In this document: positions 18,264 to 60,427 of the stretch, in pieces
How positions within the stretch are numbered: position 1 is the stretch's first letter
Layout of the letters: each line of letters begins with the position of its first letter
Assembly (NCBI GenBank): GCA_041665365.1
Contig: JBAYIY010000001.1
Location: 104,720-168,719, forward strand
Length of the DNA: 64,000 bases
Origin: Patescibacteria group bacterium
GTDB taxonomy: Bacteria > Patescibacteriota > Patescibacteriia > UBA9570
Direction: 5' to 3'
Program-made: the position numbers and the translations under genes
Notes under the pieces: model-generated
What the model was told of the DNA's origin: nothing
What the model saw: only the letters and a program-made list of their open reading frames with translations
The model's database searches: none

Positions 18264-18292
18264 GTAGAGACGTCCCGCCGGGACGTCTCTAC
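18264..18292. repeat. 29-bp near-perfect palindrome GTAGAGACGTCCCGCCGGGACGTCTCTAC (copy 1 of a palindromic repeat family)
   Basis: 13-bp arms with a 3-nt centre. Overlaps the stop of the SRPBCC gene. No T-run on either side. A second, longer copy lies at 25981-26027. Confidence 0.7.
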
Positions 18293-18684: not shown

Positions 18685-18713
18685 AATAAAAGAAAAATGT
18701 TATAGTACGCGTA

Positions 18714-19091
18714 ATGTCTGAACAAAAATTGATACTAATAGCCGAAGATGAACCAGCTCTAGCCAGAGCCATGCAACTCAAATTAGAGCGCAGTGGTTTC
18801 GCTGTGGAGGTCGCGAGCGATGGTGAAGTTGTACTGGAAAAATATGTCCCGGGTAAATATGACTTAATCTTATTAGATTTAATGATGCCAAAGAAAAACG
18901 GTTTTGACGTTTTAACCGCTTTGCAGAAATTAAAAAATACCACACCAATTATTGTCAGTTCTAACCTTAATCAAGCGGAAGATGTATCTCGTACCAAAGA
19001 ACTAGGTGCCGTGGATTACTTAGTAAAATCTGAAATTCCCATCTCAGAAATTATCACTAAAATAAAAAGTCGCCTGACACCTACTACTTAG
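18714..19091 (+). CDS. Stand-alone response-regulator receiver (REC) domain protein
   Basis: 125 aa. LIAEDEPALARAM...DLILLDLMMPKKNGFDVL carries the phospho-acceptor Asp signature. Lies immediately upstream of pilB. Confidence 0.75.
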   Translation: MSEQKLILIAEDEPALARAMQLKLERSGFAVEVASDGEVVLEKYVPGKYDLILLDLMMPKKNGFDVLTALQKLKNTTPIIVSSNLNQAEDVSRTKELGAVDYLVKSEIPISEIITKIKSRLTPTT

Positions 19092-19122
19092 CCACTCAGA
19101 TAAAAATAATAAACAAAAAAAT

Positions 19123-27145: not shown

Positions 27146-28153
27146 TTATAAAGCCTGCGTCAGTAACTCCTTAATAAATTTTAAATTGTTGTATTTAGCG
27201 TGTCGGCCGACTAATTCAAGAAAACCATCGCCTGTTACCGGCTTCCCTGCCATCGTACCACACACCTGTAGTGGACCTTCCCAGTAATTCATTTTTCCAA
27301 AGATCATTTCTTGCTGTTTGACTTTTGGTGTGACTGTGACATCCAATTTTATGGCTGGAATTTTTATATGCCAGGTTAATTGATAAGTGGCACTGGTATT
27401 AGGACTAGTCCAGGCAGTACCAACTGGCTCAAGCGTAAATTTTTTATTATGAACTTGAGTATTATCTGGAAAAGATACGCTGGCACTATTTTTAAATTTT
27501 TCATTATCCTTAAAACGAGCCAACAAAATATCAGTTTTATTATCCAGTTGTAAGGAAAACCACGTCCAGTCAAAATCAACGAATCGCGCCTCAGCCCACT
27601 GATGATCCATCCAAGCAATCCCCTGTACTGGAATGAGGTTATTGTTCCACTGGATATTACCAGACACATATAATCTGGGTATTGAATAATAACATGATGA
27701 TTTACCTTGATATTTCATAATACCCGTTCCACCTACTAAGAGGGGCGGTTTTTCGGACAATAATTGGAGGTGCATTTTATCGGTTTGCACAACATAATGA
27801 AATGGTTCCAGTTCGTCTAGGCGCTGCGGTGCTTGTAATGGTTTTAATGGGAGACTACACGATAAAGACAACAACTTAGCTCTAGGAGGCTGTGTATGTA
27901 AGGCTAAATAACTAATTTGCCGTTCACAACTTTTTTGGCTAACATTAGTTAATACAGCATGGGGAAAATAGATTGACTCCACTGGTAAATATTCCAAAAT
28001 GGGTAAACTGGATTTTTTTGGATTAACATGAAAAATACAGTACATAAAAGCATACTGTTTGTTGTATTTATCGGTCAGATGCCCATTAATGTACCACCAC
28101 TCTCCGGCGACATTGTGGGGTAACTCATCGTGAGGGAATCGTAGTGCTTTCAT
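27146..28153 (-). CDS. AttH/CrtC-like lipocalin-fold protein (hydroxyneurosporene-synthase-like family)
   Basis: 335 aa. N-terminus FPHDELPHNVAGEWWYINGHL matches the CrtC/AttH signature. Confidence 0.55.
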   Translation of the reverse strand: MKALRFPHDELPHNVAGEWWYINGHLTDKYNKQYAFMYCIFHVNPKKSSLPILEYLPVESIYFPHAVLTNVSQKSCERQISYLALHTQPPRAKLLSLSCSLPLKPLQAPQRLDELEPFHYVVQTDKMHLQLLSEKPPLLVGGTGIMKYQGKSSCYYSIPRLYVSGNIQWNNNLIPVQGIAWMDHQWAEARFVDFDWTWFSLQLDNKTDILLARFKDNEKFKNSASVSFPDNTQVHNKKFTLEPVGTAWTSPNTSATYQLTWHIKIPAIKLDVTVTPKVKQQEMIFGKMNYWEGPLQVCGTMAGKPVTGDGFLELVGRHAKYNNLKFIKELLTQAL

Positions 28154-28218
28154 AGTTACCCTGTATGATATAGAATAACCTCAGTCTAGACAACTCTAAA
28201 CATTTTTTTAATATCACT

Positions 28219-28989
28219 ATGAAACCCATCGCTGAACTATTTAATCTAACTGGCCAAACTGCTATTGTCACCGGTGGCGCTATGGGCATTGGTCAGGGCA
28301 TCGTCCAGCGTTTACACGAAGCCGGAGCTAATGTCATAATTGCCGACGTTGCTGAACCGAAAAGCTTAACAGATAATGAGTTTTACATAAAAACCGATAT
28401 CAGTGATGAAACGAGTATAAAAAATTTAGTTACTGCTGTACAAAAACAATTTGGTCGAATAGATATACTAGTAAACAACGCCGGTATCTTTCCACAACAA
28501 CCAGTCTTAGCTATGGAGTTATCCTTCTGGGAAAAAATCCAGGCGGTTAATTTAAGAGGGACTTTTTTGTGTTGCCGCGAAGTTGGTAATGTCATGGCCA
28601 AGCAAGGTCGAGGTAATATTGTTAATATCGCCTCAATTGATGCGTTACACCCCAGCATGGCCGGGTTAGCCGCCTATGATGCTTCCAAGCACGCTGTATG
28701 GGGCTTTACGAAAAACTTTGCCTTAGAGGTAGGTAAGCTAGGTATTCGTGTTAACGCCATCGCGCCGGGCAGTATAAACACTGAGGGTGTAAAAAACCTG
28801 AATTCAGGAGCCGTACCGGCCGGTGTTGATATGACCGCCATCATGAAACAATTTTTAGCCAAAATACCATTAGGCCGCATGGGTGAACCGGATGATATCG
28901 CCATGGCAACACTATTTTTAGCCAGTGCTGCCTCTAGTTACATGACCGGTAGTATGATGGTAGTAGACGGCGGCGTGTTGTTGTCTTAA
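28219..28989 (+). CDS. Short-chain dehydrogenase/reductase (FabG-like)
   Basis: 256 aa. TGGAMGIGQGI Rossmann motif, NNAG, and catalytic S...YDASKHAV (YxxxK). Confidence 0.8.
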   Translation: MKPIAELFNLTGQTAIVTGGAMGIGQGIVQRLHEAGANVIIADVAEPKSLTDNEFYIKTDISDETSIKNLVTAVQKQFGRIDILVNNAGIFPQQPVLAMELSFWEKIQAVNLRGTFLCCREVGNVMAKQGRGNIVNIASIDALHPSMAGLAAYDASKHAVWGFTKNFALEVGKLGIRVNAIAPGSINTEGVKNLNSGAVPAGVDMTAIMKQFLAKIPLGRMGEPDDIAMATLFLASAASSYMTGSMMVVDGGVLLS

Positions 28990-29532: not shown

Positions 29533-29557
29533 AGAATTGATTTATTTATTAATCAAT

Positions 29558-29609
29558 GATATCACATTGTCTCGATTGCGACTAGAAAAGCCTACACTAG
29601 TGATGGGTA
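29558..29609 (-). promoter_or_regulatory. Conserved about 50-bp intergenic motif, copy A (upstream of FKBP gene)
   Basis: Plus-strand sequence GATATCACATTGTCTCGATTGCGACTAGAAAAGCCTACACTAGTGATGGGTA. On the minus sense it ends about 25 nt before the FKBP ATG and contains a TGTGATATC (-10-like) element. Confidence 0.4.
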
Positions 29610-29683: not shown

Positions 29684-30316
29684 CTACTCGCAGCCCTCAT
29701 CGACTACGAAGTCGCAATCGTTGTCCTGCCCGTCGCAGAGCTCGGGCGCTCCGGGGTAGACACTGTCGTCCCCTTCACTACAGTCGGCATCTTCGACCAT
29801 CAGCGCCCACCCATCGGGCTGAGTGCAGTCGACAACTCCATTGAACGGGTTGATGTACCCGTCCTCATCCTCATCCTCGTACCAGGTAGACGGGCCAGCA
29901 ACATCTGAGTCGGCGTCGTCACAGTCAGTGGAGGCCGCCACCCCGTCGCCATCGGAGTCGGGCCAAGTACCCTCGTCGATGTCTCCATCGCAGTCGTTGT
30001 CGAGACCGTCACACAACTCCGGGGCTCCGTTGTAAACCGTCGCATCGCCGTCGTCGCAGTCGGTCGCATCGGCCAGGTACCCATCGGGCTGAGTACACGA
30101 CATGATGGGACTATCCTCCTGACCATGACCGTCCCCGTCATCGTCAGAGTGCCAAATCTCAGCTAACTCTGACGTCACGCCTTCAATGCAAACATCGTTG
30201 AGGTTGCAGCCGGAAAGCAGAAACAAAGAAATAGAGATAAACATGAATACCTCACATGTTGGTGGCCTGGGGTTTGGCTGTGGTTGAAAGTAAAACCCCG
30301 CGCTTGCCATTACCAC
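29684..30316 (-). CDS. GC-rich secreted lipoprotein with MopE-like Cys-rich repeats (CDGxDNDCDGxxDEG)
   Basis: ORF of 210 aa. Probable start at the internal MFISISLFLLSGC lipobox (about 30247). Repeats ATDCDDGDATVYNGAPELCDGLDNDCDGDIDEG and SEGDDSVYPGAPELCDGQDNDCDFVVDEG. Local GC is about 58% against an AT-rich background. Confidence 0.55.
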   Translation of the reverse strand: MVMASAGFYFQPQPNPRPPTCEVFMFISISLFLLSGCNLNDVCIEGVTSELAEIWHSDDDGDGHGQEDSPIMSCTQPDGYLADATDCDDGDATVYNGAPELCDGLDNDCDGDIDEGTWPDSDGDGVAASTDCDDADSDVAGPSTWYEDEDEDGYINPFNGVVDCTQPDGWALMVEDADCSEGDDSVYPGAPELCDGQDNDCDFVVDEGCE

Positions 30317-32497: not shown

Positions 32498-32821
32498 TTA
32501 TTTAAGAGCTTGTTGAATAGTTTTAATGACTGCTTGCACGAATGGATTATTATGTTCAAGTTTGGGAAAAACTTTTTTTCCATTTCGCTCCTTTTGCAAT
32601 ATATTAGCGTGTACTAAAATTTTGATGTGTTGCGAGGCTAACGGTACGGAAATGTTGAGAATTCTGGCGATATCACCAACCGTCAGTTTGGGCTGTTTGG
32701 CAAGCACCATGAAAATGCGGTAACGATTCACGTCGCTGAGCACCTTAAATACCCCTGCCATGGTTATATCGGTTTCACTGAATGTTTGACGATTTTTACG
32801 CACTTCTTTTTCACTGAGCAT
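32498..32821 (-). CDS. ArsR/SmtB-family HTH transcriptional regulator
   Basis: 107 aa. LSDVNRYRIFMVLAKQPKLTVGDIARILNISVPLASQHIKILVHANIL is the ArsR winged-helix pattern. Confidence 0.75.
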   Translation of the reverse strand: MLSEKEVRKNRQTFSETDITMAGVFKVLSDVNRYRIFMVLAKQPKLTVGDIARILNISVPLASQHIKILVHANILQKERNGKKVFPKLEHNNPFVQAVIKTIQQALK

Positions 32822-32907
32822 TAAAATATAGTTTAATACTTAAACAAGTGTTAAACTTATACCACGCCATAATTTATCTGTCTAGAGCAAGAGTTCTTTC
32901 TGATATC

Positions 32908-33040
32908 GAGCTGGCTTGCCAGCCGGAGTAACGAACCTTGTGAGTTACGTAGGCTGGACGTACTGGTCTAGAACCTAGACCACCGAGGGTTTACTTGGGT
33001 TAAATTCGGAGTTACCAACAGGGTTGTTGGGTCACCTAAA
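32908..33040. repeat. Island repeat R1: degenerate tRNA-Gln 3'-end-like segment with hairpins (GCTGGCTTGCCAGC; GGTCTAGAACCTAGACC)
   Basis: Near-identical to 36017-36150 (R3) and partially to 34994-35052 (R2). Confidence 0.6.
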
Positions 33041-33066
33041 TGAGACAAACGAGACAGTATAAAAAG

Positions 33067-33120
33067 GATATCATACTGTCTCGATTGCGACTAGAAAAAA
33101 GCCTAGACTTGTGAGGGGTA
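33067..33120 (-). promoter_or_regulatory. Conserved about 50-bp intergenic motif, copy B (downstream of heliorhodopsin 1, upstream of ArsR gene)
   Basis: GATATCATACTGTCTCGATTGCGACTAGAAAAAAGCCTAGACTTGTGAGGGGTA. Preceded by the inverted repeat GAGACAGTAT(33051-60)/ATACTGTCTC(33073-82). Confidence 0.4.
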
Positions 33121-33142
33121 TTGTTGCGTAATATGCTGTAAA

Positions 33143-33913
33143 CTATACAGGGCGTAATGTACCGGCAAACACCTGCCAGGCCAGTAAAGATTTCGCCACC
33201 AGACTTAGGATAATATACACTTTTTCGCCATAGGTATACTCTTTCCATTTCCCGATTTTCTTATATTGCAATAACATATTCACTGCAAATGAATTGAAGA
33301 AGAGAAACATCGAGAAAAAAATCCAATACACAAAGGTGGGTGCATGATGATCCGCATCACCGGAAAAGGCTAAATAGCACGCAATCACAATCCAAGGGAT
33401 AGCTCCTGCAATGCAGCCAAAGATATAGGCTGTCCAATCAGTTTTTTTGGTAGATTGATTATGCAATTCCATCATCCAGCCAAACAAAATCATCATGGCA
33501 TTTAAGCCAAACATCAGCAGCAAACTAAATACATCATAGATACCAACCAACATACCAATCACTACAATCATCAGCGACGAGCTCAGTGAATATTCAACCC
33601 AACGAGCATAGTTCGCGCCCTTTTTTAAATGGTTCACATACCATTCATAGATACCGGGTAACGACACCATTAAATGTGCTAGGGCCGACAAGGCAAAAAA
33701 ACCTGCCACCAGGGGCCCTACCGATACAGTAGTTAACTCTTGCAAATTTTGTTGCAGCGTGAAGTTTTGAGTATTGAAACTTAAAAATGCAGTCGTTAGT
33801 GGTACTGCAAACGAATTGCTCAATACCAGTACAGCGACAGCTTGCACGGCATGCAAACAAAACATGACGATATTCCAGCGTCGCAAATTAAGAAATGTAT
33901 TTGGGTTCGGCAT
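33143..33913 (-). CDS. Heliorhodopsin (paralog 1)
   Basis: 256 aa, 7 TM. Heliorhodopsin family signatures: LRRWNIVMFCLHAVQA, ARWVEYSLSSSLMIVVIGML, MILFGWMME, FGCIAGAIPW, LFFNSFAV, YIILSLVAKSLLAWQVFAGTL (putative Schiff-base Lys in TM7). Confidence 0.85.
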   Translation of the reverse strand: MPNPNTFLNLRRWNIVMFCLHAVQAVAVLVLSNSFAVPLTTAFLSFNTQNFTLQQNLQELTTVSVGPLVAGFFALSALAHLMVSLPGIYEWYVNHLKKGANYARWVEYSLSSSLMIVVIGMLVGIYDVFSLLLMFGLNAMMILFGWMMELHNQSTKKTDWTAYIFGCIAGAIPWIVIACYLAFSGDADHHAPTFVYWIFFSMFLFFNSFAVNMLLQYKKIGKWKEYTYGEKVYIILSLVAKSLLAWQVFAGTLRPV

Positions 33914-33938
33914 AGTCCTCCGTATGCTTAATGATAAA

Positions 33939-34973
33939 TTAATTATTTACGGCTTGTACGATAATATAGAGCACCAATGCAGTAGTAATAGTAGCAGAGA
34001 CCATCATGCCAATAAATAATTGCCGTTTAATTGGTTTGGCCGAAAAACCTGAAAACTGACTCAAGTCATCAAGCTCTTTTACGTTAGCTACTAATTCATC
34101 TTTGGTTAAAATAGTACTTTTGCTGACATAACTATCGGTCACAAAGTGTTGAGCATAGGGAAAACACACCACTTGAATTGGTTGTGGTTCAAATAAACCT
34201 GGATACCAGCTATTGGTTTCAACTGTGACGTGTTCAAGCGGAATGCGTAGCGCCTGTTCAACTTCTAATGGATCAAACTGCAGCGAAAATACATTCGATT
34301 TACCATCCGATACGTTTGTACCATAATCGATCGATAAATTGCCTTCCAACCATAGTCGTTGATCGAGCGGCCACATGGTTCCAGCGGTACTATCTGCTTC
34401 TACGACGAGTTTACGAGAAGCATCGTCACGTTCCATATGTACGAGCACCTTGCCATGATGCGTAGTGGTCATCACTGAATTTGTGCTATTGGCATTCACT
34501 AAACCATGTTTGGGATCATAACTATTGGTATTGGTATCGTAATCTACAATCACCCAACTGAGTAACCCGGTGTGTTTATTTTCTGCAATCACATACATTT
34601 CAATTCTACTTCCCCAGAAGGCACTGGTATGGGCGGTCACGCAACCAAAAATAATATAGTACTCTGGTTCATCGTCAGCAAATATTTTGGTTTTGATCAT
34701 TTCATAATCTGCCGAGATTAAACTTTGTGCTAAGGCAACATTTTTAAGTTTATAACACAAAAACAGACTATACGGCTCCACCACAAAACCCATGTGCGGG
34801 ATGGTCTTGGCAGTACTGGTCATCAACTTCTTTTGAATTGGCTTGGGAATAAGCTTGGTAAAGGAATTTAAAAAGCTAATTGCCACCACGTCGGTTGGTT
34901 TCACTAAACGTTCTACACCTTTAATAAATTGAGTTGTGTCGATTTCCTCCATGATTGATGAGTAGTATAGCAC
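33939..34973 (-). CDS. Hypothetical protein with C-terminal TM anchor, co-transcribed upstream of heliorhodopsin 1
   Basis: 344 aa with no recognisable motif. Hydrophobic C-terminal segment FIGMMVSATITTALVLYIIVQA. A 25-bp gap separates it from the HeR start. Confidence 0.45.
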   Translation of the reverse strand: MLYYSSIMEEIDTTQFIKGVERLVKPTDVVAISFLNSFTKLIPKPIQKKLMTSTAKTIPHMGFVVEPYSLFLCYKLKNVALAQSLISADYEMIKTKIFADDEPEYYIIFGCVTAHTSAFWGSRIEMYVIAENKHTGLLSWVIVDYDTNTNSYDPKHGLVNANSTNSVMTTTHHGKVLVHMERDDASRKLVVEADSTAGTMWPLDQRLWLEGNLSIDYGTNVSDGKSNVFSLQFDPLEVEQALRIPLEHVTVETNSWYPGLFEPQPIQVVCFPYAQHFVTDSYVSKSTILTKDELVANVKELDDLSQFSGFSAKPIKRQLFIGMMVSATITTALVLYIIVQAVNN

Positions 34974-34984
34974 ATATCAATGAC

Positions 34985-35073
34985 GAGGACTTTTGAGAGG
35001 GTGAGGTTAGCTGGCTTGCCAGCCGGAGTAACGAACCTTGTGAGTTACGTAGGCTGGGGCGGTAGGGTTCGAA
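34985..35073. repeat. Island repeat R2 ending in an exact 21-bp copy of the tRNA-Gln 3' end (GCTGGGGCGGTAGGGTTCGAA, 35053-35073)
   Basis: GAGGACTTTTGAGAGG...GTAGGCTGG followed by CTGGGGCGGTAGGGTTCGAA, identical to 57466-57486. Confidence 0.7.
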
Positions 35074-35141
35074 AATCACCTTTGATTTCGAAGCTCATCC
35101 TAAATTATCAATAAATACCAGTGTCGCAGGTTAGTCGAGCA

Positions 35142-35681
35142 TCACAATGACGGTGTAGAAATGACGGCTTTGATCTGTGTGGAGTTGGCATGCCACCAGG
35201 CTCGGATCTCATCGGCTTTGCCGACCCCGCTAAACTGATTGACGGAAAATGCATTGCCTGCAAGCGCTGCTTGTTCGAGCTGTCTGCGCAGTTCTCCACC
35301 CACTCTGGAAGCTGCGTAGGAAGATATAGTTGTATTCAAGGCATCGTTTGACATCTCTCCCGTGAACATAATCGTACCGGTTGTCATCGTTGCGGAGTCC
35401 GTTGCCCCCATTGCGTTGAGTGACACGATGTCTGGGCTCCCATCGGCGGCGAGAAGGTCATGCAATTCAGATGCCTTCTCGGGTACGACCAAGCGGACAA
35501 GTACTTCTACCTGATCAGTGCCCTGACTCGCCAACATCGCGTCGAGATTCTGCTCGTACGCCGTCGCACCAAACGGTGGTTCTCCATTGCTTGCCGGCTG
35601 TGACGGAAGCCCAATTTTACAGCCAGTCGTGAGGCCGAGAAGGATGACGACGGTGGCGTACGCATATGTTCGCATAGGCAT
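35142..35681 (-). CDS. GC-rich lipoprotein, hypothetical
   Basis: 179 aa with lipobox LGLTTGCKI. Local GC is about 55%, far above the background. Confidence 0.45.
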   Translation of the reverse strand: MPMRTYAYATVVILLGLTTGCKIGLPSQPASNGEPPFGATAYEQNLDAMLASQGTDQVEVLVRLVVPEKASELHDLLAADGSPDIVSLNAMGATDSATMTTGTIMFTGEMSNDALNTTISSYAASRVGGELRRQLEQAALAGNAFSVNQFSGVGKADEIRAWWHANSTQIKAVISTPSL

Positions 35682-35756
35682 ATTTTAGGCCTGGAAAGCC
35701 AGTGCTGTCAACAGCCCGCGGAGACGGGCTATACAACCTGACAGGTCCAGAACCTA

Positions 35757-36000
35757 GACCACCAAGGCTTTATCGGTCAGCTTATTCCGGGTCTCTTGGC
35801 CAAGCATGCGCTTCTCGATCCATTTGTCTGATCTGCCTAGTTCCTGCCAATTTTCTCGAGCTCGATTAAGACCCAACTCTGGATCAACAGTTTCTTGTAA
35901 GCGCTCATAACCAACTTTAGCTAGCCATTGTTTAAATGGTTCTGCTTTACTAAAATACCATTTCTCCTCGGCTTCAGCCCAAATACGACGGACTGGGCTA
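35757..36000 (-). pseudogene. C-terminal gene remnant (about 80 codons, no start codon)
   Basis: The reverse frame translates to SPVRRIWAEAEEKWYFSKAEPFKQWLAKVGYERLQETVDPELGLNRARENWQELGRSDKWIEKRMLGQETRNKLTDKALVV*. The open frame runs into repeat R3 at about 36003. Confidence 0.3.
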
Positions 36001-36003
36001 TAT

Positions 36004-36160
36004 GAGGACTTTTGAGAGGGTGAGGTTAGCTGGCTTGCCAGCCGGAGTAACGAACCTTGTGAGTTACGTAGGCTGGACGTACTGGTCTAGAACCTAGACC
36101 AGTCGGGGTTTATTGGGATTAGATTTCGAGTTACCTACAGGGTTGATGGGTCACCTAAAT
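36004..36160. repeat. Island repeat R3 (same as R1 plus the GAGGACTTTTGAGAGG head)
   Basis: GAGGACTTTTGAGAGGGTGAGGTTAGCTGGCTTGCCAGCCGGAGTAACGAACCTTGTGAGTTACGTAGGCTGGACGTACTGGTCTAGAACCTAGACC...GGGTCACCTAAATGAGAC. Confidence 0.6.
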
Positions 36161-36185
36161 GAGACAGTTGAGACACTATAAAAAG

Positions 36186-36238
36186 GATATCACGTTGTCT
36201 CAGTTGCGACTAGAAGAAGCCTGGACTTGTGAGGAGTA
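36186..36238 (-). promoter_or_regulatory. Conserved about 50-bp intergenic motif, copy C (downstream of heliorhodopsin 2)
   Basis: GATATCACGTTGTCTCAGTTGCGACTAGAAGAAGCCTGGACTTGTGAGGAGTA. Confidence 0.35.
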
Positions 36239-36260
36239 TAGTGGCGTAATATTCTGCACT

Positions 36261-37031
36261 TTATACTGGACGTAATGTACCGGCAAATACTTGCCAAGCC
36301 AAGAGTGATTTAGTCACCAAACTCATGACAATATACACTTTTTCACCATAGGTATAATCTTTCCATTTCCCGACTTTCTTGTATTGCAATACCATATTTA
36401 TCGCAAAACTATTGAAGAAGAGGAACATCGAGAAGAAAATCCAGTAGACAAAGGTTGGGGCTTTAAATTCTCCTTCTCCAGCAAACGCTAAATAGCAGGC
36501 GATGATAATCCACGGAATGGCACCAGCAATGCAACCAAAGATGTATGCTGTCCAGTCCGTTTTTTGTGTGGATTGATTATGTAGCTCCATCATCCAACCA
36601 AACAGAATCATCATGGCATTCAAACTAAACATCAGCACCAGGCTAAAAACGTCATACATGCCGGTCAACATCGCAATGACCACAATCATTAACGACGAAC
36701 TGAAGGTATACTCTACCCAGCGAGCATAGTTAGCCCCTGACTTTAAATTCTTCACATACCATTGATACACACCAGGCAATGAAACTATTAAGTGGGCCAA
36801 AGCTGACAGGGCTAAAAATCCAGCAATTAACGGGGCAATCGGTACTGTGGTCAGTTGCTGTAAATCTTGGCCGAGACTGCGCGTTTGCGGATTAAATTCA
36901 ACAAACAATGTCGTCAACGGTAACGCAAAGCTATTACTGACTACCAGCATGATTGTGGCTTGGATTGAATGCAGGAAGAACATCGCAATGTTCCACCGGC
37001 GTAAGTTACGAAACTTGTTAGTTATTGGCAT
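36261..37031 (-). CDS. Heliorhodopsin (paralog 2)
   Basis: 256 aa with the same signatures as paralog 1 (LRRWNIAMFFLHSIQA, ARWVEYTFSSSLMIVVIAML, FGCIAGAIPW, YIVMSLVTKSLLAWQVFAGTLRPV). The 3' coding end and about 250 bp downstream are near-identical to paralog 1. Confidence 0.85.
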   Translation of the reverse strand: MPITNKFRNLRRWNIAMFFLHSIQATIMLVVSNSFALPLTTLFVEFNPQTRSLGQDLQQLTTVPIAPLIAGFLALSALAHLIVSLPGVYQWYVKNLKSGANYARWVEYTFSSSLMIVVIAMLTGMYDVFSLVLMFSLNAMMILFGWMMELHNQSTQKTDWTAYIFGCIAGAIPWIIIACYLAFAGEGEFKAPTFVYWIFFSMFLFFNSFAINMVLQYKKVGKWKDYTYGEKVYIVMSLVTKSLLAWQVFAGTLRPV

Positions 37032-37076
37032 AATCGTCCTCCTAAGTAGTGTATAAAATACTAGGCTTAGGATTAA

Positions 37077-37127
37077 GATATCATATTGTCTCGATTGCGA
37101 CTAGAAAAAACCTAGACTTGTGACGGC
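37077..37127 (-). promoter_or_regulatory. Conserved about 50-bp intergenic motif, copy D (about 50 nt upstream of heliorhodopsin 2 start; GGAGGA RBS follows)
   Basis: GATATCATATTGTCTCGATTGCGACTAGAAAAAACCTAGACTTGTGACGGCA. Confidence 0.4.
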
Positions 37128-37145
37128 ATGGCGGCGTAATACGAA

Positions 37146-38117
37146 CTAGCTTTTTTGAGTATGGTGATTAGCCTTTACGCTCTGATGGGCGTCCTGTAGT
37201 AAGGATTTTAGGGTAGAGGCAAAGGTTGGATGACCTAATAACTGTGGTAACTGTATGCTGCGAATCTCATCTGGCAAAGACAAGTTGGCAAATACTGACA
37301 CCTGACTCATTTTTAATTCTTCTACCGGAACAATATCAAGTAAAGAACCCTGCCTTTGCTCAAAGCGTTCTACTAGCTTAGTTAATTCCTGCTTAAACTC
37401 TTCGGGATATTGTTTAACATAACGTTTGTTCGTGAACCCTACTCTGCTAGCCAATTGAATGATATCTTGCGGTTGTATATTCTCACCTAAAAATCTACGA
37501 ATGAGAAGTACCTCGTTGGAAGTACCCTCTAGCATTGATAAATTATTTTGCGCAAAATCAATCCTTTTTTTATGAATAATAGCAACCATTAAGGCTTGCT
37601 GAGCGTAGGATCGGAAAGTCCCTTTATCATGATGATTTAATAATCTCAAAATTTCTTCAGCGGCCAAATCAAAATTACCAACCAGCAACTGACGCTCAAG
37701 ACCATAGTAGTATAAAAAGACATAACTTAGATTAGTTTCTTGAGTGACATCCCGCAACCAATTAATATATTGATACCGTTGTTCAGGCGTAAGTCCAGTA
37801 TATGATGGATAGTAAAGCTTATCCTGTTCAAGCTCATCATTTTGCTCCACTGGTAATTGCGTCCAAATTAAACTGGGTTCAGCAAAAAAATTATGTCGAT
37901 CTGGTATGTTAGTCCTTATACCGTCTGGACCCAGACTAATAGTGATATTGATGGTAGTGGCGGATTGAATTTTAGATGGGGGTTCATCTGTAAACCAAAG
38001 TAAGGACAGCGTAGGTTGAGGTATATGAAAAGAATTACGCAGTATAGACGGTATACTTGGCACTAGCGCTTGGTGCCTTGGAATTAAAGGTGAAAAAAGC
38101 TTTTTGAAAATGTTCAT
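37146..38117 (-). CDS. Hypothetical protein (last gene of five-gene defence-like operon)
   Basis: 323 aa. Its start overlaps the stop of the upstream HEPN-like gene by 4 nt. No confident domain; a TerB-N-like assignment is only a guess. Confidence 0.4.
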   Translation of the reverse strand: MNIFKKLFSPLIPRHQALVPSIPSILRNSFHIPQPTLSLLWFTDEPPSKIQSATTINITISLGPDGIRTNIPDRHNFFAEPSLIWTQLPVEQNDELEQDKLYYPSYTGLTPEQRYQYINWLRDVTQETNLSYVFLYYYGLERQLLVGNFDLAAEEILRLLNHHDKGTFRSYAQQALMVAIIHKKRIDFAQNNLSMLEGTSNEVLLIRRFLGENIQPQDIIQLASRVGFTNKRYVKQYPEEFKQELTKLVERFEQRQGSLLDIVPVEELKMSQVSVFANLSLPDEIRSIQLPQLLGHPTFASTLKSLLQDAHQSVKANHHTQKS

Positions 38118-38866
38118 TTTATAGATTCAAAATATTTTCTTGCTGCGCTTGTAAAATACAGGTAATCTTTTACTGCATTATAAACATTTTTCTGCTCTTC
38201 TTTGGAACAAGCAAATAAATGATTATTTTTAGACCAAAACCCTTGTTTAAACATTATGGATTTCTTTTTTACTTTCCCAAAATATAGATTCTTCCAAACT
38301 AAATTGCCTCTCTCAATATGATGCTTGCTACTCTTATCTTTTAGAATACCTTCCAAATAACCATTCGTGAAATAATTAGCACTATTATTGGCTGTGTTTT
38401 CTTCTAACTTCTTCCAGCCGATTTTTTTGATAAAATGATTGATACGTTGAGTATCACTACAGCTAAAAAATCTCAACTGCCAAACAAGTTCATCTAAAAC
38501 TAGTAACCAAGATCGTTTAGCATAAAATGGGAAATCAGGATAGCGAACAAAGTTATAAACACTTAAGTTCTTTACCAAATCAAGGCACTCTTTGTAGATG
38601 TTAAAAGATGGAATATTAGATTTACATAAATTATACAAATACTCTAGTTCATGCCATTGATTACCAGTTGCATTTCTGGGAACTTTTACGCCGTTGTATA
38701 AAAGTATCGATTTCAAATATTTCTCAATACTTTGATGAGCTAAAGTAAGGAACTGATCCAAGCACTGGTTGCGGAACAGTGTACGTGCAGCAATGTAGTC
38801 TCTATCAGCATAGGATCTAAAATCACTAGCTATCGCATTTCTATGGATAATACTTTCGTCGATCAT
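38114..38866 (-). CDS. HEPN-domain-like protein
   Basis: 250 aa. N-terminal DRDYIAARTLFRNQCLDQFLTLAHQSIEKYLKSIL is the HEPN helix-pair pattern, plus RNATGNQWH (a loose Rx4-7H). Confidence 0.45.
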   Translation of the reverse strand: MIDESIIHRNAIASDFRSYADRDYIAARTLFRNQCLDQFLTLAHQSIEKYLKSILLYNGVKVPRNATGNQWHELEYLYNLCKSNIPSFNIYKECLDLVKNLSVYNFVRYPDFPFYAKRSWLLVLDELVWQLRFFSCSDTQRINHFIKKIGWKKLEENTANNSANYFTNGYLEGILKDKSSKHHIERGNLVWKNLYFGKVKKKSIMFKQGFWSKNNHLFACSKEEQKNVYNAVKDYLYFTSAARKYFESIK

Positions 38867-38897
38867 AATAAGTATTATAATCCTAGGTACATTTTAA

Positions 38898-40067
38898 TCA
38901 TAGCCGTATCTTAGAATGATCACTGCCAGTCACATCCCATTCATCCGTTTCTTTTTTTATCTTTGGTAATTTTAATAAACCTTTCTTGAGCCGAGATATG
39001 ACCAGCTGTTTAATAGCATCCTCTTGGTCATAACCATGTAAACGGCCTGTCAGTACTCCCATTCTAAAGGTTAAGCCTTCAGACATTAGTGACCAGTTGG
39101 TGGCCGCTAAATTCTTTTCAAGCAACCTGGTCAAAGTTCTGATGCTATCGTATGACTGGCGCGTTGATTCATCTTGGACTGAAAAGCCAATCTGCACATC
39201 TTTACTAATCGCCGGCTGTTCAAAAGTGATTTGAGTATATTCGTTTTTTGTAGCTAGTGCCTCTACACGCTTGCGTAACTGCGGGACAGTGAGTCGTTCA
39301 ATGGACGCAATTAATTCATAAAGCCCCTTATGCTCTTCCTGTTCTTTGGCTTCATCGGTTATCTTTTTCATTTCTTCTAAATCTACCAGAAACTTCAAAT
39401 ACTCATGACCCTCTTCATCGGAAATGCAATATTTCTTACGCAATTTCTTAAACTCAATTTCACTCATTTCATCCTTTTTTTCTGTTTTTAAATCAAGCAC
39501 ATCTACAGTTTTGTGATGGCATTTCGTACAACGCTCTATAGTTGTAATAATATCTCCCTTACGTGATCGTTCTGTTTTAATTGTTTGCCGATGACAACGC
39601 ACACAAACTTTTGGTTGCGATACGTATTCAATGCCATCATGGTAGAAAGCCCGGCCCCGATGTTTACTTGGACAAGTGTAAAAGAATAAGACGACGTCTT
39701 TGCCGTCTCGATCAGTTAATGTTTTAAAGTCAGATTGTATAGACTCATGGCATGTGGAGCAGTAGATATTTTTTGGAGCAATTGCTGCTTCAAGTAACTG
39801 ATCCCGCACCCTGTCACGCTCCATCCATTCTTGGATTGTTTTTTCTTTGTTTTTCCATAGCTCACCTTTTTCAAAATACATTTGCAATTCAAGATTCATT
39901 TTTGAAAAAGTTTTATATTGCGCAAACTCAGGGGTTCCTTTCTTAAAATTTTTAGCTTCACTGACACGCTGCTGTGCATGCTCGATCATCTGACAATACT
40001 TGATAGTATGCAAGTCATATCTATCATCATAATGAGTTCTTTCTTTCAGCTCTCGTACAGTACCCAT
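38898..40067 (-). CDS. Zinc-finger protein, hypothetical
   Basis: 389 aa. CSTCHES...CPSKHRG...CVRCHRQ...CTKCHHK form repeated C-x2-C-H treble-clef-like knuckles. A coiled-coil middle region follows. Confidence 0.45.
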   Translation of the reverse strand: MGTVRELKERTHYDDRYDLHTIKYCQMIEHAQQRVSEAKNFKKGTPEFAQYKTFSKMNLELQMYFEKGELWKNKEKTIQEWMERDRVRDQLLEAAIAPKNIYCSTCHESIQSDFKTLTDRDGKDVVLFFYTCPSKHRGRAFYHDGIEYVSQPKVCVRCHRQTIKTERSRKGDIITTIERCTKCHHKTVDVLDLKTEKKDEMSEIEFKKLRKKYCISDEEGHEYLKFLVDLEEMKKITDEAKEQEEHKGLYELIASIERLTVPQLRKRVEALATKNEYTQITFEQPAISKDVQIGFSVQDESTRQSYDSIRTLTRLLEKNLAATNWSLMSEGLTFRMGVLTGRLHGYDQEDAIKQLVISRLKKGLLKLPKIKKETDEWDVTGSDHSKIRL

Positions 40068-40082
40068 CTAAGCTTTGTACAA

Positions 40083-41180
40083 CTATTTTTTTGTATGCGC
40101 TTCAAGTACGTCAATATAATTTTCCAAACGGCTAAGCAATTCATCATAAGTGACTATTACCACATCTTTCAATCCCTGCGTGAGTAGTCGCAAGTCATCT
40201 TTCTGCTTTTGCTCAGTTAAAATGGAAGCATTCCCTGCTAAGATAATGCCTCGTGGACGCAAGACCTGCAGTTGAATTTTATGTTTATCTATCAGATAAC
40301 TTCGAATAGCATCACCATGACGATGAACTTGGGACATGTAATTCTCGGTTTGAATAATAGCTTTAGAAATTTCTTTATCAAAGTAATAATTGCCTCGGCT
40401 ATCATCTGGCAGAAGCAGATTGGTATCCGGTTTTTTTATTTCTAGAATATCTAAATAGTTATCATGTGTTATTAAAGCAAAGTCAGGTAATTTTGTATTA
40501 CCAATTGCTACATTCATTTTCTCTATTGCTTTAATGTACCCTTGTTGAATAAGTAAAATATTATCCCGAATATATTTTTGCCACCACGACTCCGCATGCT
40601 TCGATTGGATGGCTTTCTTGAGATAAGCTGCCAACTCTTTCAATGATTTAATTTGTGCTTGGGCTTTTAAGAGGTTAACGCTACTAATTGATTCAGATGC
40701 AATATACCCCGGTAAAAACTTATTCAGAACATCCCTATCCTCTGAGGAAAGCTGAGGTATCATCGCTGGACTAATAACCTTAGATAATAAACCTGGCACA
40801 TATACTTGGATATCCTCAGCAGCAAAATGATTCGGATATGTTGCAGCAAAAAAATGATCAACAATATCATTTTTAATATCTCGGTTTCGTGTAATGCTCT
40901 CTCCACCCATTTTAGAAAGCAATGTTTTTGAAGTGTAAACAAGGTATTTTCCTCTAAAAAGATCTATGTGAGAATCTGAGTCTGTGATAATCCACTTATA
41001 ATTGCCTGGAAATTTACGTTGCAACTTTTGCAAAATATGTTTTCCAAAAGATATCATGCCATCCTTTTTTAAATTCGATGGCTTTTTGCCTTCGTAATAA
41101 ATACAAACTCCTTTAAGGGCATTACCATAAGTTCTATTCTTGATTTTGACATGTTTTAATTTTTTCTTTACAGCTCTCAT
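40083..41180 (-). CDS. DUF4263 (Shedu SduA-like) PD-(D/E)xK nuclease-domain protein
   Basis: 365 aa. C-terminal half ESWWQKYIRDNILLIQQGY...LPDFALITHDNYLDILEIKKPDTNLL...QTENY...RPRGIILAGN fits the DUF4263 D...E-x-K nuclease core and family pattern. Confidence 0.5.
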   Translation of the reverse strand: MRAVKKKLKHVKIKNRTYGNALKGVCIYYEGKKPSNLKKDGMISFGKHILQKLQRKFPGNYKWIITDSDSHIDLFRGKYLVYTSKTLLSKMGGESITRNRDIKNDIVDHFFAATYPNHFAAEDIQVYVPGLLSKVISPAMIPQLSSEDRDVLNKFLPGYIASESISSVNLLKAQAQIKSLKELAAYLKKAIQSKHAESWWQKYIRDNILLIQQGYIKAIEKMNVAIGNTKLPDFALITHDNYLDILEIKKPDTNLLLPDDSRGNYYFDKEISKAIIQTENYMSQVHRHGDAIRSYLIDKHKIQLQVLRPRGIILAGNASILTEQKQKDDLRLLTQGLKDVVIVTYDELLSRLENYIDVLEAHTKK

Positions 41181-42747: not shown

Positions 42748-44028
42748 ATGAATCAACCCATTCAAACCGTTCAGGTTAAGATAGTCGACCTAAACCCTGC
42801 CCCCTATAACCCGCGGCGCTGGGACGAAGCAGCCAAAACTCATCTCAAAGACAGCATTCAGCGCTTTGGCTTAGTAGATCCAATTATTGTTAATAATAAT
42901 CCAGACCGTCACAATATTGTTATCGGAGGACATTTCCGGCTGCACATTGCAAAAGAACTAGGATATGTAGAGGTGCCCGTGATCTATCTCAATATCGCTG
43001 AGGTTGCCAAAGAAAAAGAACTTAATCTTCGGCTCAACAGGAATGTGGGGTCATGGAACTTCGAGTTGCTTAAAGAATTTGATCTGAACCTCTTGCTCGA
43101 TGTTGGATTTGATGATGCAGACCTTTCTATCATTTGGGATGAAATGTTAGAGGTAGAAGATGATCACTTTCATACCCAAAAAGAATTCAAAGAAGCACAA
43201 CATACTACTATTCAAGCTGGTGATTTGTTTGCGCTCGGTGATCATCGCGTCATTTGTGGTGACGCTACTCAACCCGAGGTGATTCAAGCACTGCTAGGAG
43301 GTCAGCATGTACAGATGATTTACTCTGATCCCCCATACAACATTGCCTTAAATTATTCTAAGGGTATAAGCACCCAAGGCAAGTATGGCCATAGCCAGCT
43401 GAATGATCATCAATCCGATTCTGAGTATCAACTATTTTTACAACGTTCCCTAGAAACCGCGTTGACAGTACTGGATGATGCAGGTCATGTGTTTTACTGG
43501 TGCGATGAGCGATATATTGGCTTGTTGCAGCAACTGTATACCACAGTAGGGATCAACCACAAACGGGTCTGTCTTTGGATTAAAAACAACCACAATATGA
43601 CTCCCCAAGTGGCATTTAATAAACTATATGAACCATGTGTCTACGGCACTCGTGGTAAACCTTATCTGGCTGAAATTAAAAACCTGCACGAAATTCTGAA
43701 CAAGGAAGTGGGTACCGGCAATCGCGCTATTGATGATCTCCAAGACCTCTTAAATATTTGGTTCGAAAAACGCCTGCCTGGAATGCAATATACACACCCC
43801 ACTGAAAAGCCAGCTACCCTACATGAAAAGCCCATACGCCGTTGTACTAAGCCCGGTGACCGTATATTGGATAGCTTCGGAGGTTCTGGTTCAACGTTAA
43901 TCGCCTGTGAACAACTAAAGCGGGTAGCCTATGTAGCTGAAATCGACCCTATTTTTACACAATTAATACTCAATCGCTATGAACAACTTACTGGAAATAA
44001 AGCCAAACAGCTCAACGGAACTAAATGA
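42748..44028 (+). CDS. ParB-like nuclease domain fused to N6-adenine/N4-cytosine DNA methyltransferase
   Basis: 426 aa. N-terminus VKIVDLNPAPYNPRRWDE...IVIGGHFRLHIAKELG (ParB/Srx fold), DPPYN catalytic motif, C-terminal SFGGSGSTLIACEQLKR (SAM-binding motif I). This architecture is common in phage. Confidence 0.75.
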   Translation: MNQPIQTVQVKIVDLNPAPYNPRRWDEAAKTHLKDSIQRFGLVDPIIVNNNPDRHNIVIGGHFRLHIAKELGYVEVPVIYLNIAEVAKEKELNLRLNRNVGSWNFELLKEFDLNLLLDVGFDDADLSIIWDEMLEVEDDHFHTQKEFKEAQHTTIQAGDLFALGDHRVICGDATQPEVIQALLGGQHVQMIYSDPPYNIALNYSKGISTQGKYGHSQLNDHQSDSEYQLFLQRSLETALTVLDDAGHVFYWCDERYIGLLQQLYTTVGINHKRVCLWIKNNHNMTPQVAFNKLYEPCVYGTRGKPYLAEIKNLHEILNKEVGTGNRAIDDLQDLLNIWFEKRLPGMQYTHPTEKPATLHEKPIRRCTKPGDRILDSFGGSGSTLIACEQLKRVAYVAEIDPIFTQLILNRYEQLTGNKAKQLNGTK

Positions 44029-44749
44029 ACCACAACAGTTAGGTTACCACTACGTCATGTGTGGCGATGCTACTAATCCAACTGATGTCGCTCAACTGAT
44101 AGGAAAACAGAAAATTAATCTAGTACTGACGGATCCACCGTACGGAGTTGGCTATGTAGAAAGTAAACAAGGTTTTCAAACTCTTCGTCATGAAAAAGTG
44201 ATCGCTAATGACCACGTCCAAAGCGAAGAGGAATATCAAAACTTTATGGAGCAATGGCTAAAACTGACAGTGCCGCATTTAGCCAAACGGAATGCTTTCT
44301 ATGTATTTAACTCAGATAAGATGCTATTTGCCCTCCGCCGTGCCATGGATAACCACAAGTTACACTTTGCTCAGTTACTAATCTGGATGAAACAACATGC
44401 TGTTATTGGTCGCTTAGATTACCTGCCACAACACGAGCTCATTATGTATGGCTGGTACGGCACGCATCGTTTCTATAAAAATAAAGATAAGTCCGTCCTC
44501 TTCTGCCCAAAGCCGCAGCGGAGTCGCCTGCACCCAACCACCAAACCAGTGAGTTTGCTACGCCGCCTCATACTGAATAATACCCAGGTGGGTGACGTTG
44601 TGTACGATCCCTTTGGTGGCTCAGGGTCGACGCTGATTGCATGTGAACAAACCCAACGCCGTTGTCTCATGATGGAACTTGATCCAGATTATTACACGAC
44701 GATTCTACAACGCTTTGAGCAGCACATTTTGAAATATGGGGATCAATAA
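43979..44749 (+). CDS. DNA methyltransferase (DPPYG; beta-class N6/N4)
   Basis: 256 aa. HYVMCGDATN, LTDPPYGVGY, DPFGGSGSTLIACEQTQR. Paralogous to the MTase domain of the upstream gene. Overlaps that gene by 50 bp. Confidence 0.75.
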   Translation: MNNLLEIKPNSSTELNEPQQLGYHYVMCGDATNPTDVAQLIGKQKINLVLTDPPYGVGYVESKQGFQTLRHEKVIANDHVQSEEEYQNFMEQWLKLTVPHLAKRNAFYVFNSDKMLFALRRAMDNHKLHFAQLLIWMKQHAVIGRLDYLPQHELIMYGWYGTHRFYKNKDKSVLFCPKPQRSRLHPTTKPVSLLRRLILNNTQVGDVVYDPFGGSGSTLIACEQTQRRCLMMELDPDYYTTILQRFEQHILKYGDQ

Positions 44750-44751
44750 AT

Positions 44752-45189
44752 ATGGAACCTAAACACAAGAGAAGAATGACCATTGAAAAACGTCAGCAAA
44801 CCCAAAAGGACGCCTTAATTGAACTACTGAAGAAAACACCCATCATCCAAGCGGCTTGCCAAAAGATGGAGCTGGGACGGGCTACCTACTATCGCTGGCT
44901 AAAAGATGACCCAGCATTTGCAGAGGCAGTACACACTGCACTCGACCATGGCGTGGGACTGGTAAATGATATGGCAGAGTCGCAGTTAATTTCTGCGATT
45001 AAAGATCAAAATATGACGGCCATCATCTTCTGGCTAAAACATCACCACATGGCTTATACAACACGTATTGAATTGACGGGCGGTCAATCTACGGATCTGC
45101 CTGAATTAACTCCAGAACAGCAGCGTGTAGTTCAAGTTGCTCTTGAACAAGCACGACTCCTAAATAATGAGTCACCACAGATACTATGA
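44752..45189 (+). CDS. Terminase small subunit-like HTH protein
   Basis: 145 aa. AACQKMELGRATYYRWLKDDPAFAEAV is an HTH, with the gene directly upstream of terL and overlapping it by 4 nt. Confidence 0.45.
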   Translation: MEPKHKRRMTIEKRQQTQKDALIELLKKTPIIQAACQKMELGRATYYRWLKDDPAFAEAVHTALDHGVGLVNDMAESQLISAIKDQNMTAIIFWLKHHHMAYTTRIELTGGQSTDLPELTPEQQRVVQVALEQARLLNNESPQIL

Positions 45190-46733: not shown

Positions 46734-46806
46734 GAGAAAGTTACCAACAAGTTACCTACAGCTGTCACTGGATAGCCTACAAAGGGTGTGACATTACTGT
46801 AGATAG

Positions 46807-57413: not shown

Positions 57414-57466
57414 ACTTTTGAGAGGATGAGGTTGATGGGTCACCTCCAGAACTTTCTGAAATCAAG

Positions 57467-59011: not shown

Positions 59012-59012
59012 A

Positions 59013-60424: not shown

Positions 60425-60427
60425 AAA

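Follow-up and report, generated by a model that had tools for sequence, protein, structure and literature searches.

Here we analyse a stretch of 64,000 nt from the genome of a Patescibacteria group bacterium (assembly GCA_041665365.1, contig JBAYIY010000001.1, positions 104,720 to 168,719 of the forward strand), which we call the window. Near its middle lie two genes for heliorhodopsins (HeRs), HeR1 and HeR2, each encoding 256 aa and each followed by a conserved unit of ~190 nt. HeR1 is preceded by a gene for a 337-aa tail-anchored protein, and HeR2 lies inside a genomic island that adjoins a tRNA-Gln gene. We ask what the 337-aa protein may be to HeR1, and how one genome came to hold both HeRs. 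The coordinates of these features are collected in Table 1, and all positions are those of the window unless a related locus is named.

Table 1. Coordinates of the features discussed in the text.
Feature	Position	Strand	Remarks
~190-nt unit after HeR1	32950-33142	(-)	nhmmer E 1.7e-53, alignment A5
HeR1, 256-aa heliorhodopsin	33143-33913	(-)	resident copy, directly downstream of the 337-aa gene
Spacer between 337-aa gene and HeR1	33914-33938	(-)	25 nt, GGAGGA ribosome-binding site, no predicted terminator
337-aa tail-anchored protein	33939-34952	(-)	earlier listed as a 344-aa open reading frame (ORF) from GTG 34973
73-nt block	34985-35057	(-)	'C core' hairpins and a copy of the tRNA-Gln downstream flank; 100% identical to 36004-36076
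Distal 21-nt repeat	35053-35073	(-)	perfect copy of the tRNA-Gln 3' end, TTCGAACCCTACCGCCCCAGC; attR-like, upstream of the 337-aa gene
Island	35074-57465	.	22,392 nt; missing in relative L003
179-aa ORF	35142-35681	(-)	lipoprotein-like N-terminus (LTTGC); bracketed by perfect 73-nt repeats
~190-nt unit after HeR2	36069-36260	(-)	nhmmer E 2.7e-51; 88% identical to the HeR1 copy over 230 nt
HeR2, 256-aa heliorhodopsin	36261-37031	(-)	second sub-lineage; distal end of the tRNA-Gln island, between the 21-nt repeats
Module A, partial 5' copy of the unit upstream of HeR2	37077-37143	(-)	88% over 67 nt; nhmmer E 7.6e-09
TerB_N/SngA-like gene	37146-38117	(-)	directly upstream of HeR2
Large serine recombinase	46807-48120		only recombinase found in the island
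tRNA-Gln(ttg)	57466-57539	(-)	ARAGORN and Rfam; last 21 nt (57466-57486) are the proximal repeat, attL-like

Two intact heliorhodopsins

The heliorhodopsin profile of Pfam (PF18761) matches HeR1 with E = 9.8e-101 (336.6 bits) and HeR2 with E = 1.6e-99 (332.6 bits), against a cut-off of 26.7 bits and in both cases along profile positions 1-242 of 242. HeR1 is also recovered by the NCBIfam equivalog for HeRs, NF038020 (E = 2e-103, 345 bits, cut-off 100), and its best match among the PDB sequences is TaHeR, 6is6 (E = 3e-74), with 6su3 at E = 3e-63. The two proteins are 78% identical to one another and align without a gap. When they are aligned with 19 relatives, H21, H80, E107, S237 and K241 are invariant in all 21 sequences. 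The last two of these residues belong to the SxxxK motif of the seventh transmembrane (TM) helix, which reads SLVAK in HeR1 and SLVTK in HeR2, and K241 aligns with the equivalent Lys of TaHeR. By homology to the solved HeRs, E107, which lies within RWVEY in TM3, is the Glu counter-ion, and H21 and H80 are the two conserved His; all three are kept in both copies.

From these alignments we conclude that HeR1 and HeR2 both encode intact, genuine heliorhodopsins, as a first-pass annotation of this DNA had proposed. Every motif that it quoted recurs in both proteins, and the TM7 Lys and the other defining residues, which it left to be checked by alignment, are present. The other 256-aa ORFs in the window (at 28219, 43979 and 54434) are not rhodopsins; they encode a short-chain dehydrogenase/reductase (SDR), a DNA methylase and an unknown protein.

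As proteins, HeR1 and HeR2 are ordinary for the candidate phyla radiation (CPR). They resemble the HeRs described from CPR and Patescibacteria genomes (PF18761; PMC9166423, PMC8612252) in the full-length match, the Glu counter-ion and both His, and the SLVAK of HeR1 is the TM7 motif most commonly reported for CPR HeRs. Nor is it new that a genome should hold more than one rhodopsin, since 115 rhodopsins are documented in 86 of 1,326 CPR genomes, HeRs themselves occurring in only about 6.5% of CPR genomes (PMC9166423). The novelty of the locus is its genomic context, namely the pairing of one HeR with an unnamed gene and the position of the other in a tRNA-Gln island.

The 337-aa family and its linkage to heliorhodopsin

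The ORF that had been placed at 33939-34973, 25 nt upstream of HeR1, does exist, but its 344-aa start is probably wrong. The GTG at 34973 falls within a TGCTATACT extended -10-like box, and both the database copy of the protein and all of its homologues begin at the ATG at 34952. For these two reasons the most likely start is the ATG, which gives a protein of 337 aa and not 344. An identical copy is found in a Patescibacteria metagenome-assembled genome (MAG), and the closest named relative is in a Kerfeldbacteria MAG.

The protein consists of a conserved N-terminal helical segment, a beta-cone domain resembling that of acetoacetate decarboxylase (ADC; approximately residues 55-275), and a C-terminal TM helix (approximately residues 306-336). 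It has no signal peptide, and its single TM helix is preceded by Lys/Arg. Since the flank before the helix is positively charged, we infer from the positive-inside rule that the soluble domain would be cytoplasmic, that is, on the same side of the membrane as the N-terminus and loops of the HeR.

The AlphaFold model of the protein (pTM 0.76) has ADC as its only significant match in Foldseek, with TM-scores of 0.33/0.43 at 7-10% identity. Judged by this predicted model, the fold is an acetoacetate decarboxylase-like beta-cone, an assignment that we call clear. Sequence profiles, which the first-pass annotation had recommended along with structure prediction, gave nothing: none of 18 family members has a match in Pfam even at E = 10, PF06314 of ADC included, and neither NCBIfam nor a comparison of the family profile with the PDB sequences returns a match for the protein. 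The description of the protein as having no recognisable domain holds, then, for sequence profiles and fails for the predicted fold. The protein has no significant sequence or profile similarity to the ADC-like superfamily (3bh2 ADC, 3cmb, 5upb Swit_4259, 4jm3 MppR and 4zbo Sbi00515), and it is unlike these proteins in its extra N-terminal helical segment, its C-terminal TM anchor and its want of a conserved Schiff-base lysine.

With regard to catalytic residues, a mapping by hhalign against an ADC alignment was unusable, its probability being 0.3%; the ADC reference sequence agrees with 3bh2 at 243/244 positions. No lysine is invariant across the superfamily alignment (A6). K87 and K148 of the 337-aa protein are replaced in its relatives, and the Schiff-base Lys of ADC (K115 in C. 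acetobutylicum) has no counterpart in the family, where the equivalence of positions is drawn without a residue-level structural superposition. The invariant polar residues of the family are G114, R116, E118, D137, Y138, S144, D146 and N205, and they suggest that the family is an enzyme or a specific ligand-binding protein.

The family is compact and strongly conserved. It amounts to 230 clusters (50% identity) in a set of 1.84 billion representatives, and its mean column identity is 63% across CPR phyla. A distant branch, whose members are 245-275 aa long and have no anchor, keeps G-x-R-x-E, D-Y, S-x-D and N, but no lysine. Pfam returns no matches for these short relatives, and a further database search returns 35 unnamed environmental proteins. 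The same branch (P0192, P0205, P0221, P0224, P0231, P0243 and related sequences) also holds one 427-aa protein, again with no C-terminal anchor; its compositions look eukaryotic, being either low-complexity and Asn/Lys-rich or very GC-rich, and all of its members are unnamed environmental sequences. No source that we examined has a name for the main family or for the distant branch. In a Spirochaetales MAG (L074) and a high-GC 'Deltaproteobacteria' MAG (L080), two paralogues of the 337-aa family stand in tandem on the same strand, 11-33 nt apart, near 10001-11014 of those loci.

In the window, the 337-aa gene and HeR1 are probably one transcript, because the 25-nt spacer between them holds a GGAGGA ribosome-binding site and no predicted terminator. 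To place this pair among others, we searched reference genomes for relatives of the 337-aa family, which yielded 226 stretches spanning CPR, Firmicutes, Eggerthellaceae and other Actinobacteria, and Spirochaetes, and we read the neighbourhoods of the best 80. The search thereby defines an uncharacterised protein family across CPR, Firmicutes and Actinobacteria. A HeR lies within 10 kb in 13 of the 80 loci. All three of the closest metagenomic relatives (L081, L082 and L083) are HeR-linked as well: in L082 and L083 the HeR lies 15 nt downstream of the 337-aa homologue on the same strand, and in L081 it is 5.8 kb away. Same-strand spacers of 21-52 nt are found in L010, L032 and L033.

On the family tree, the clade to which the window's protein belongs is HeR-linked in 8/8 members, always within 6 kb, even though its homologues are as little as 57% identical and the arrangement of the pair varies (same-strand, convergent, divergent, or 2.7-5.8 kb apart). 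About eight further lineages are HeR-linked, with unlinked ones scattered among them. Among the specific neighbour clusters of the family, HeR ranks first, and no other family is repeatedly found on the same strand within 80 nt in different lineages. For the CPR-type loci, 11 of 37 are HeR-linked, compared with a chance rate that we set generously at 3%, which gives P = 7e-9; when the loci are collapsed to about 25 lineages, we find P = 3e-8. Viral contigs contain no homologue of the 337-aa protein and only HeRs that are 44% identical, and so give no evidence that either gene is carried by phages. None of the related loci has the 179-aa protein, the ArsR regulator, the 464-aa protein or the TerB_N protein of the window as a conserved neighbour.

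The tRNA-Gln island, the two heliorhodopsin lineages and the tail unit

The last 21 nt of the tRNA-Gln gene (57466-57486) recur upstream of the 337-aa gene (35053-35073) with a match of 21/21 nt, compared with 0 matches in 100 shuffles, and the same upstream sequence also holds a 24-nt copy of the tRNA-Gln downstream flank. In the relative L003, a tRNA-Thr is followed by four genes collinear with 58097-60841 of the window (61-92% identity), by tRNA-Gln, and then, within ~350 nt, by a HeR and a homologue of the 337-aa protein. Integration at tRNA-Gln follows from the perfect repeat of the tRNA 3' end together with the uninterrupted site in L003. This comparison shows a 22.4-kb tRNA-targeted island that has HeR2 inside it, at its far end, and that leaves the 337-aa/HeR1 pair outside as the resident copy; the pair occupies the position in which L003 has its own HeR and homologue.

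The cargo of the island is mosaic. It includes a LOOT RNA, genes of restriction and defence type, a high-GC M23/FG-GAP/MopE protein, a large serine recombinase, a terminase, two methylases, and Shedu SduA, HEPN, TerB_N/SngA-like and PDC-M36A-like genes, with HeR2 and the 179-aa gene at the far end, and its GC content ranges over 0.35-0.58. In its distal tRNA 3'-end repeat, the uninterrupted site of a relative, its mosaic cargo and its heterogeneous GC content, the island is like other tRNA-integrated islands, and its secondary repeats suggest stepwise accretion. It is unlike the usual case in that its ORFs of at least 100 aa include a large serine recombinase but no detected tyrosine integrase, in that a HeR stands beside the distal junction, and in that the junction unit is conserved beyond the tRNA-derived core.

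Several parts of this cargo can be described more closely. HeR2 does adjoin defence-type genes (SngA-like/TerB_N, HEPN and Shedu SduA), as had been suggested. These belong to a row on the (-) strand at 37146-41180, in which the TerB_N/SngA-like and HEPN genes overlap by 4 nt and are joined by genes for a 389-aa Cys-rich protein and Shedu SduA (PADLOC E 4e-30). A phage-like block at 42748-48120 (+) comprises a ParB-N6/N4 methylase, a second DNA methylase, a small helix-turn-helix protein, the large subunit of a terminase and the large serine recombinase; in L001 and L002, orthologues of the two island methylases (57-67% identity) are found at a distance of 7-8 kb from the 337-aa homologue. A 943-aa ORF at 50685-53516 (-), with peptidase M23, FG-GAP and MopE metal-binding repeats, looks compositionally foreign, its GC content being 0.51-0.58 against ~0.40 around it. 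The LOOT RNA (Rfam RF03000, 71 bits compared with a gathering score of 46) lies at 57123-57250 (-), just inside the island and ~215 nt from the tRNA-Gln 3' end, and no such sequence is found between the tRNA-Gln and the HeR of L003. At that place L003 has, at 11905-12048 (-) of its own locus, a 47-aa hydrophobic ORF (MLWTIAIILIVLWLLGLITSYTFGGFVHILLVIAIVIVLVRVIRGGK) between tRNA-Gln and a diverged palindrome core, upstream of the HeR; this ORF, too, may represent a small insertion at that site.

The 179-aa gene has a strong, near-consensus promoter-like site, TTGACA-18-TAAAAT, at 35711-35682. Its product has no match in Pfam, NCBIfam or PADLOC and no homologue in any fetched locus. The 73-nt repeats around the gene look like the mark of a very recent insertion or duplication event; a third copy of the block, at 32885-32957, retains 49 identical nt.

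The first-pass annotation had attributed the two HeRs to a recent segmental duplication inside the island. Their coding sequences are only 73% identical at the nucleotide level, less so than the shared tail, and at third codon positions the identity is 49% over the whole gene and 26-35% within its 5' third. Synonymous sites are therefore near saturation, and the pair is not a recent duplication. On the HeR tree, HeR1 groups with the HeRs of L083 (92% identical) and L003 (87%), while HeR2 groups with those of L082 (83%) and of L001, L002 and L004 (77-79%), so that each resembles a HeR from a different genome more than it resembles the other. The slot directly after the 337-aa gene is filled by a HeR1-type gene in L083 and by a HeR2-type gene in L082. 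The tree and this shared slot show that the two types behave as alternative alleles of one locus, and that HeR2 is no local duplicate. Since, moreover, only HeR2 lies inside the island, the duplication as first described is not upheld. The accompanying statement that the 3' coding ends and tails are near-identical is right insofar as they are collinear and conserved (32885-33142 compared with 36004-36260), but the identity is 82-93%. The only stretches that are 100% identical are the 73-nt block (36004-36076 and 34985-35057) and 49 nt of that block at 32909-32957. By segment, HeR2 is nearer to L082 in codons 1-128 and nearer to HeR1 in its last 32 codons, and the HeR 3' end and tail have probably been partly homogenised between the copies in this genome.

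The tail unit that follows each HeR has a fixed order of motifs. After HeR1 it opens with a ATATTACGC box and with a -35-like TCGAGA and a -10-like TATACT inside a GAGACA/TGTCTC inverted repeat, and it continues with TGTCTCATTT, GGTGACCCA, TGTTGGTAAC, the palindrome TGGTCTAGGTTCTAGACCA and GTACGTCCAGC. The motif copy that had been noted upstream of HeR2 is indeed a copy of the first module of this tail, module A. In other genomes, the unit stands directly after the HeR of L083, and its sub-motifs have the same order in L083, L001 and L002. In L001 and L002 it is not beside a HeR; it lies between methylase-type island genes and the region that carries the 337-aa gene, and in L002 a second, partial copy (a half-unit) brackets a gene. 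A related TTTTTTTCTAGTCGAGA sequence is found ~60 nt upstream of the L003 HeR. In the window, a fourth partial copy of module A (...CTAGTCGCAATCGAGACAATGTGATATC) occurs at 29555-29609 (-), with a MopE-repeat gene on one side, an FKBP isomerase gene on the other and no HeR nearby.

Because the unit is better conserved than synonymous sites, we take it to be under constraint. It ends in a T-arm-like palindrome and ...CCAGC, and this end corresponds to the position that a true tRNA-Gln fragment occupies in the copy upstream of the 337-aa gene. The HeR1 tail has a predicted terminator-like hairpin (33083-33050) and an RNA fold z-score of -4.9; the z-score of the HeR2 tail is -1.7. An Rfam scan of 32700-37300 finds no match at E <= 1. 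An exact search for the palindrome and C core in the first 80 related loci finds no copies, and the diverged unit was found by profile and blastn. The palindrome was also considered as an operator for ArsR, and this was rejected as a general explanation, since the unit persists in related genomes that have no ArsR gene.

Proposed function and wider neighbourhood

The function of HeRs is being settled case by case through the neighbour that each regulates. HeR is known to regulate glutamine synthetase (PMC9529153), photolyase (PMC9769723) and the ABC transporter OmrDE (PMC11109279) as operon neighbours. The arrangement in the window is like these operons in its same-strand adjacency, in its short spacer, in that the neighbour is widespread without HeR, and in that the 337-aa domain is predicted by the positive-inside rule to be cytoplasmic, on the side of the HeR N-terminus and loops. 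It is unlike them in that the 337-aa protein is itself membrane-anchored. [quoted passage not shown] The locus thus nominates a neighbour family absent from the published lists, and one that is readily testable, being conserved, small, fold-assignable and part of a simple two-gene unit.

By analogy with the three regulated neighbours, we propose that the 337-aa gene and HeR1 form a resident two-gene module, whose linkage is shown and whose mechanism is as follows. Light-activated HeR would bind the membrane-tethered 337-aa protein and modulate its activity, and most members of the 337-aa family would work without HeR. At the junctions between island genes and the region of the 337-aa gene, the tail unit would serve as a site of attachment or recombination, or be the scar left by such a site, ending in a core like a tRNA 3' end. 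Taken as a whole, the explanation that we prefer comprises two intact HeRs, a 337-aa client module, an island-borne HeR2 and a tail that is an att-like site or scar, and we give it a probability of roughly 0.55. The narrower claim, that a membrane-tethered beta-cone enzyme is switched by the HeR light signal in CPR, with HeR and the ~190-nt unit as cargo of a tRNA-Gln island, is a tentative one that we would place well short of even odds. If it is true, the 337-aa protein would be a fourth class of HeR client, structurally unlike the other three and the first that is itself membrane-anchored, and light-exposed, retinal-scavenging episymbionts would gain a direct light input into a reaction at the cytoplasmic face of the membrane. 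The HeR gene and its junction unit may also move between genomes at the edges of tRNA-Gln islands, and a HeR that lies, as here, among the cargo on the margin of a mobile CPR island would be a concrete route to the patchy distribution of HeRs. In either event, the history of the locus is corrected to a resident 337-aa/HeR1 pair and an island-borne HeR2 allele, with a conserved junction unit besides.

A number of our own results weigh against this account. The fold match is distant, both in Foldseek (TM 0.33/0.43, 7-10% identity) and in hhalign (probability 0.3%), which tells against a confident assignment of fold or enzyme, and because lysine conservation is absent across the superfamily, the Schiff-base chemistry of ADC cannot be transferred. 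We also surveyed the linkage from the opposite side, in 80 metagenomic loci centred on HeRs that are 57-68% identical to HeR1. Here the 337-aa family occurs near the HeR, in the available flank, in 1/80 loci (only L144), which is the chance level, and no other recurrent partner is found in these loci. For most members of the family no HeR lies within 10 kb; this is true of every sampled member from Eggerthellaceae and of almost every one from Firmicutes. The orientation of the pair also varies, so that co-transcription is not obligatory. As for the island, no tyrosine integrase is present among its ORFs of at least 100 aa, and long tRNA repeats are not what a large serine recombinase normally leaves behind; furthermore, the window and L003 differ in how the pair is ordered with respect to tRNA-Gln. 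The signal of gene conversion between the HeRs is weak (P about 0.09 per segment), lying in the expected direction without being significant. Considering both surveys together, we conclude from gene neighbourhoods that the linkage of the 337-aa family to HeR is real but facultative and clade-limited, and that the protein is a candidate client rather than a universal partner. The suggestion of a co-transcribed partner, to be abandoned if the two genes were never syntenic elsewhere, survives in that, elsewhere, the proximity of the gene to HeR is not random (13/80 loci, and 8/8 in the window's clade); the word partner overstates the case for a family that is widespread without HeR.

For the function of the pair, a light-modulated client of HeR is, on the strength of the analogy, the most likely reading. 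Its main rival supposes no functional link at all: the 337-aa gene and HeR would both be accessory genes that gather in a recombination-prone tRNA region, their proximity reflecting hot-spot architecture and shared ancestry. The chance-level result of the HeR-centred survey, the variable orientation and distance of the pair, the visibly mosaic region, the tRNAs near several linked loci (L003, L004, L010, L033 and L020) and the many family members with no HeR within 10 kb are all as this rival would have it, and if it is correct, what the window holds is a pair of CPR heliorhodopsins with a genomic island next to them, neither out of the ordinary. Yet HeR is the sole recurrent tight same-strand neighbour, in six loci that represent four or more lineages and have spacers of 15-52 nt, and no other accessory family shows a comparable recurrence. 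The linkage also outlasts rearrangement in all eight members of the clade, between homologues diverged to 57% identity, and it retains its significance after the collapse to about 25 lineages (P = 3e-8). We therefore regard co-location in a hot spot as rather unlikely. A role in the supply of the chromophore, in which the 337-aa protein would bind, convert or deliver retinal or a related carbonyl or isoprenoid for a host that cannot make retinal, is a minor contender and improbable: Schiff-base chemistry is unlikely without a conserved lysine, the family is common in gut Eggerthellaceae, enterococci and Listeria that have no HeR within 10 kb, and most HeR genes have no such neighbour.

For the history of the locus, the original proposal was that a recent duplication inside the island gave two HeR modules with near-identical tails, the 344-aa protein being a dedicated HeR partner. 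The collinear tails, their two perfectly identical blocks of 73 and 49 nt and the gapless alignment of the proteins are in its favour, but it is hard to reconcile with the divergence of the third codon positions, with the closer relatives that HeR1 has in L083 and L003 and HeR2 in L082, with the position of the 337-aa gene and HeR1 outside the tRNA-Gln repeat, with tail units that in other genomes sometimes stand away from any HeR, and with a 337-aa family that is mostly without HeR nearby. We consider this history very improbable. The tail presents a closer choice, since an attachment or recombination site or its scar, although the most likely reading of the motifs, is favoured only slightly over a small RNA gene or a regulatory 3' untranslated region of the HeR. 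Two observations in particular support the RNA and so count against the attachment site: the -35-like (T/C)GAGA and -10-like TATA(C/G)T are conserved at a spacing of 17-18 nt in five copies while the sequence of the spacer varies, and in L083 and L001 a clean intrinsic terminator stands after the unit. Conservation above synonymous sites and the stable fold of the HeR1 tail (z = -4.9) point the same way, as does the alignment of the unit, for which shuffling of columns gives z = -4.7. Against the RNA stand the single shared hairpin, which is imperfect in L001 and L002, the value of z = -1.7 for the HeR2 tail, the lack of any Rfam match even at E = 1, the partial units that bracket genes, and the end of the unit in a core like a tRNA 3' end, at the junction with a true tRNA-Gln fragment upstream of the 337-aa gene. 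In favour of the attachment site we also count the copies around inserted genes, namely the perfect 73-nt repeats on either side of the 179-aa gene and the half-unit in L002, and the GAGACA/TGTCTC repeats. An RNA in the tail is thus a possible reading, which deserves substantial but minority weight.

Some features of the wider neighbourhood may be recorded alongside these. SDR is the second most frequent neighbour of the 337-aa family, in 9/80 loci (the best 80 of 226). In the window, a CrtC-type lipocalin protein (PF07143 and PF17186) and a divergently placed SDR (adh_short_C2) lie at 27146-28989, 5-6 kb from HeR1, and they may take part in the handling of retinoids or carotenoids in an organism that is not expected to make retinal. 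There is also a metal-related context, with an ArsR/SmtB-type regulator (32498-32821, (-)) beside HeR1 and a MopE-repeat protein (29684-30316) 3 kb away. In L081, a MopE protein and a P-type ATPase come directly after the HeR, at 17647-20688 of that locus, and clusters of P-type ATPases occur in 6/80 loci centred on the 337-aa family and in 6/80 HeR-centred loci.

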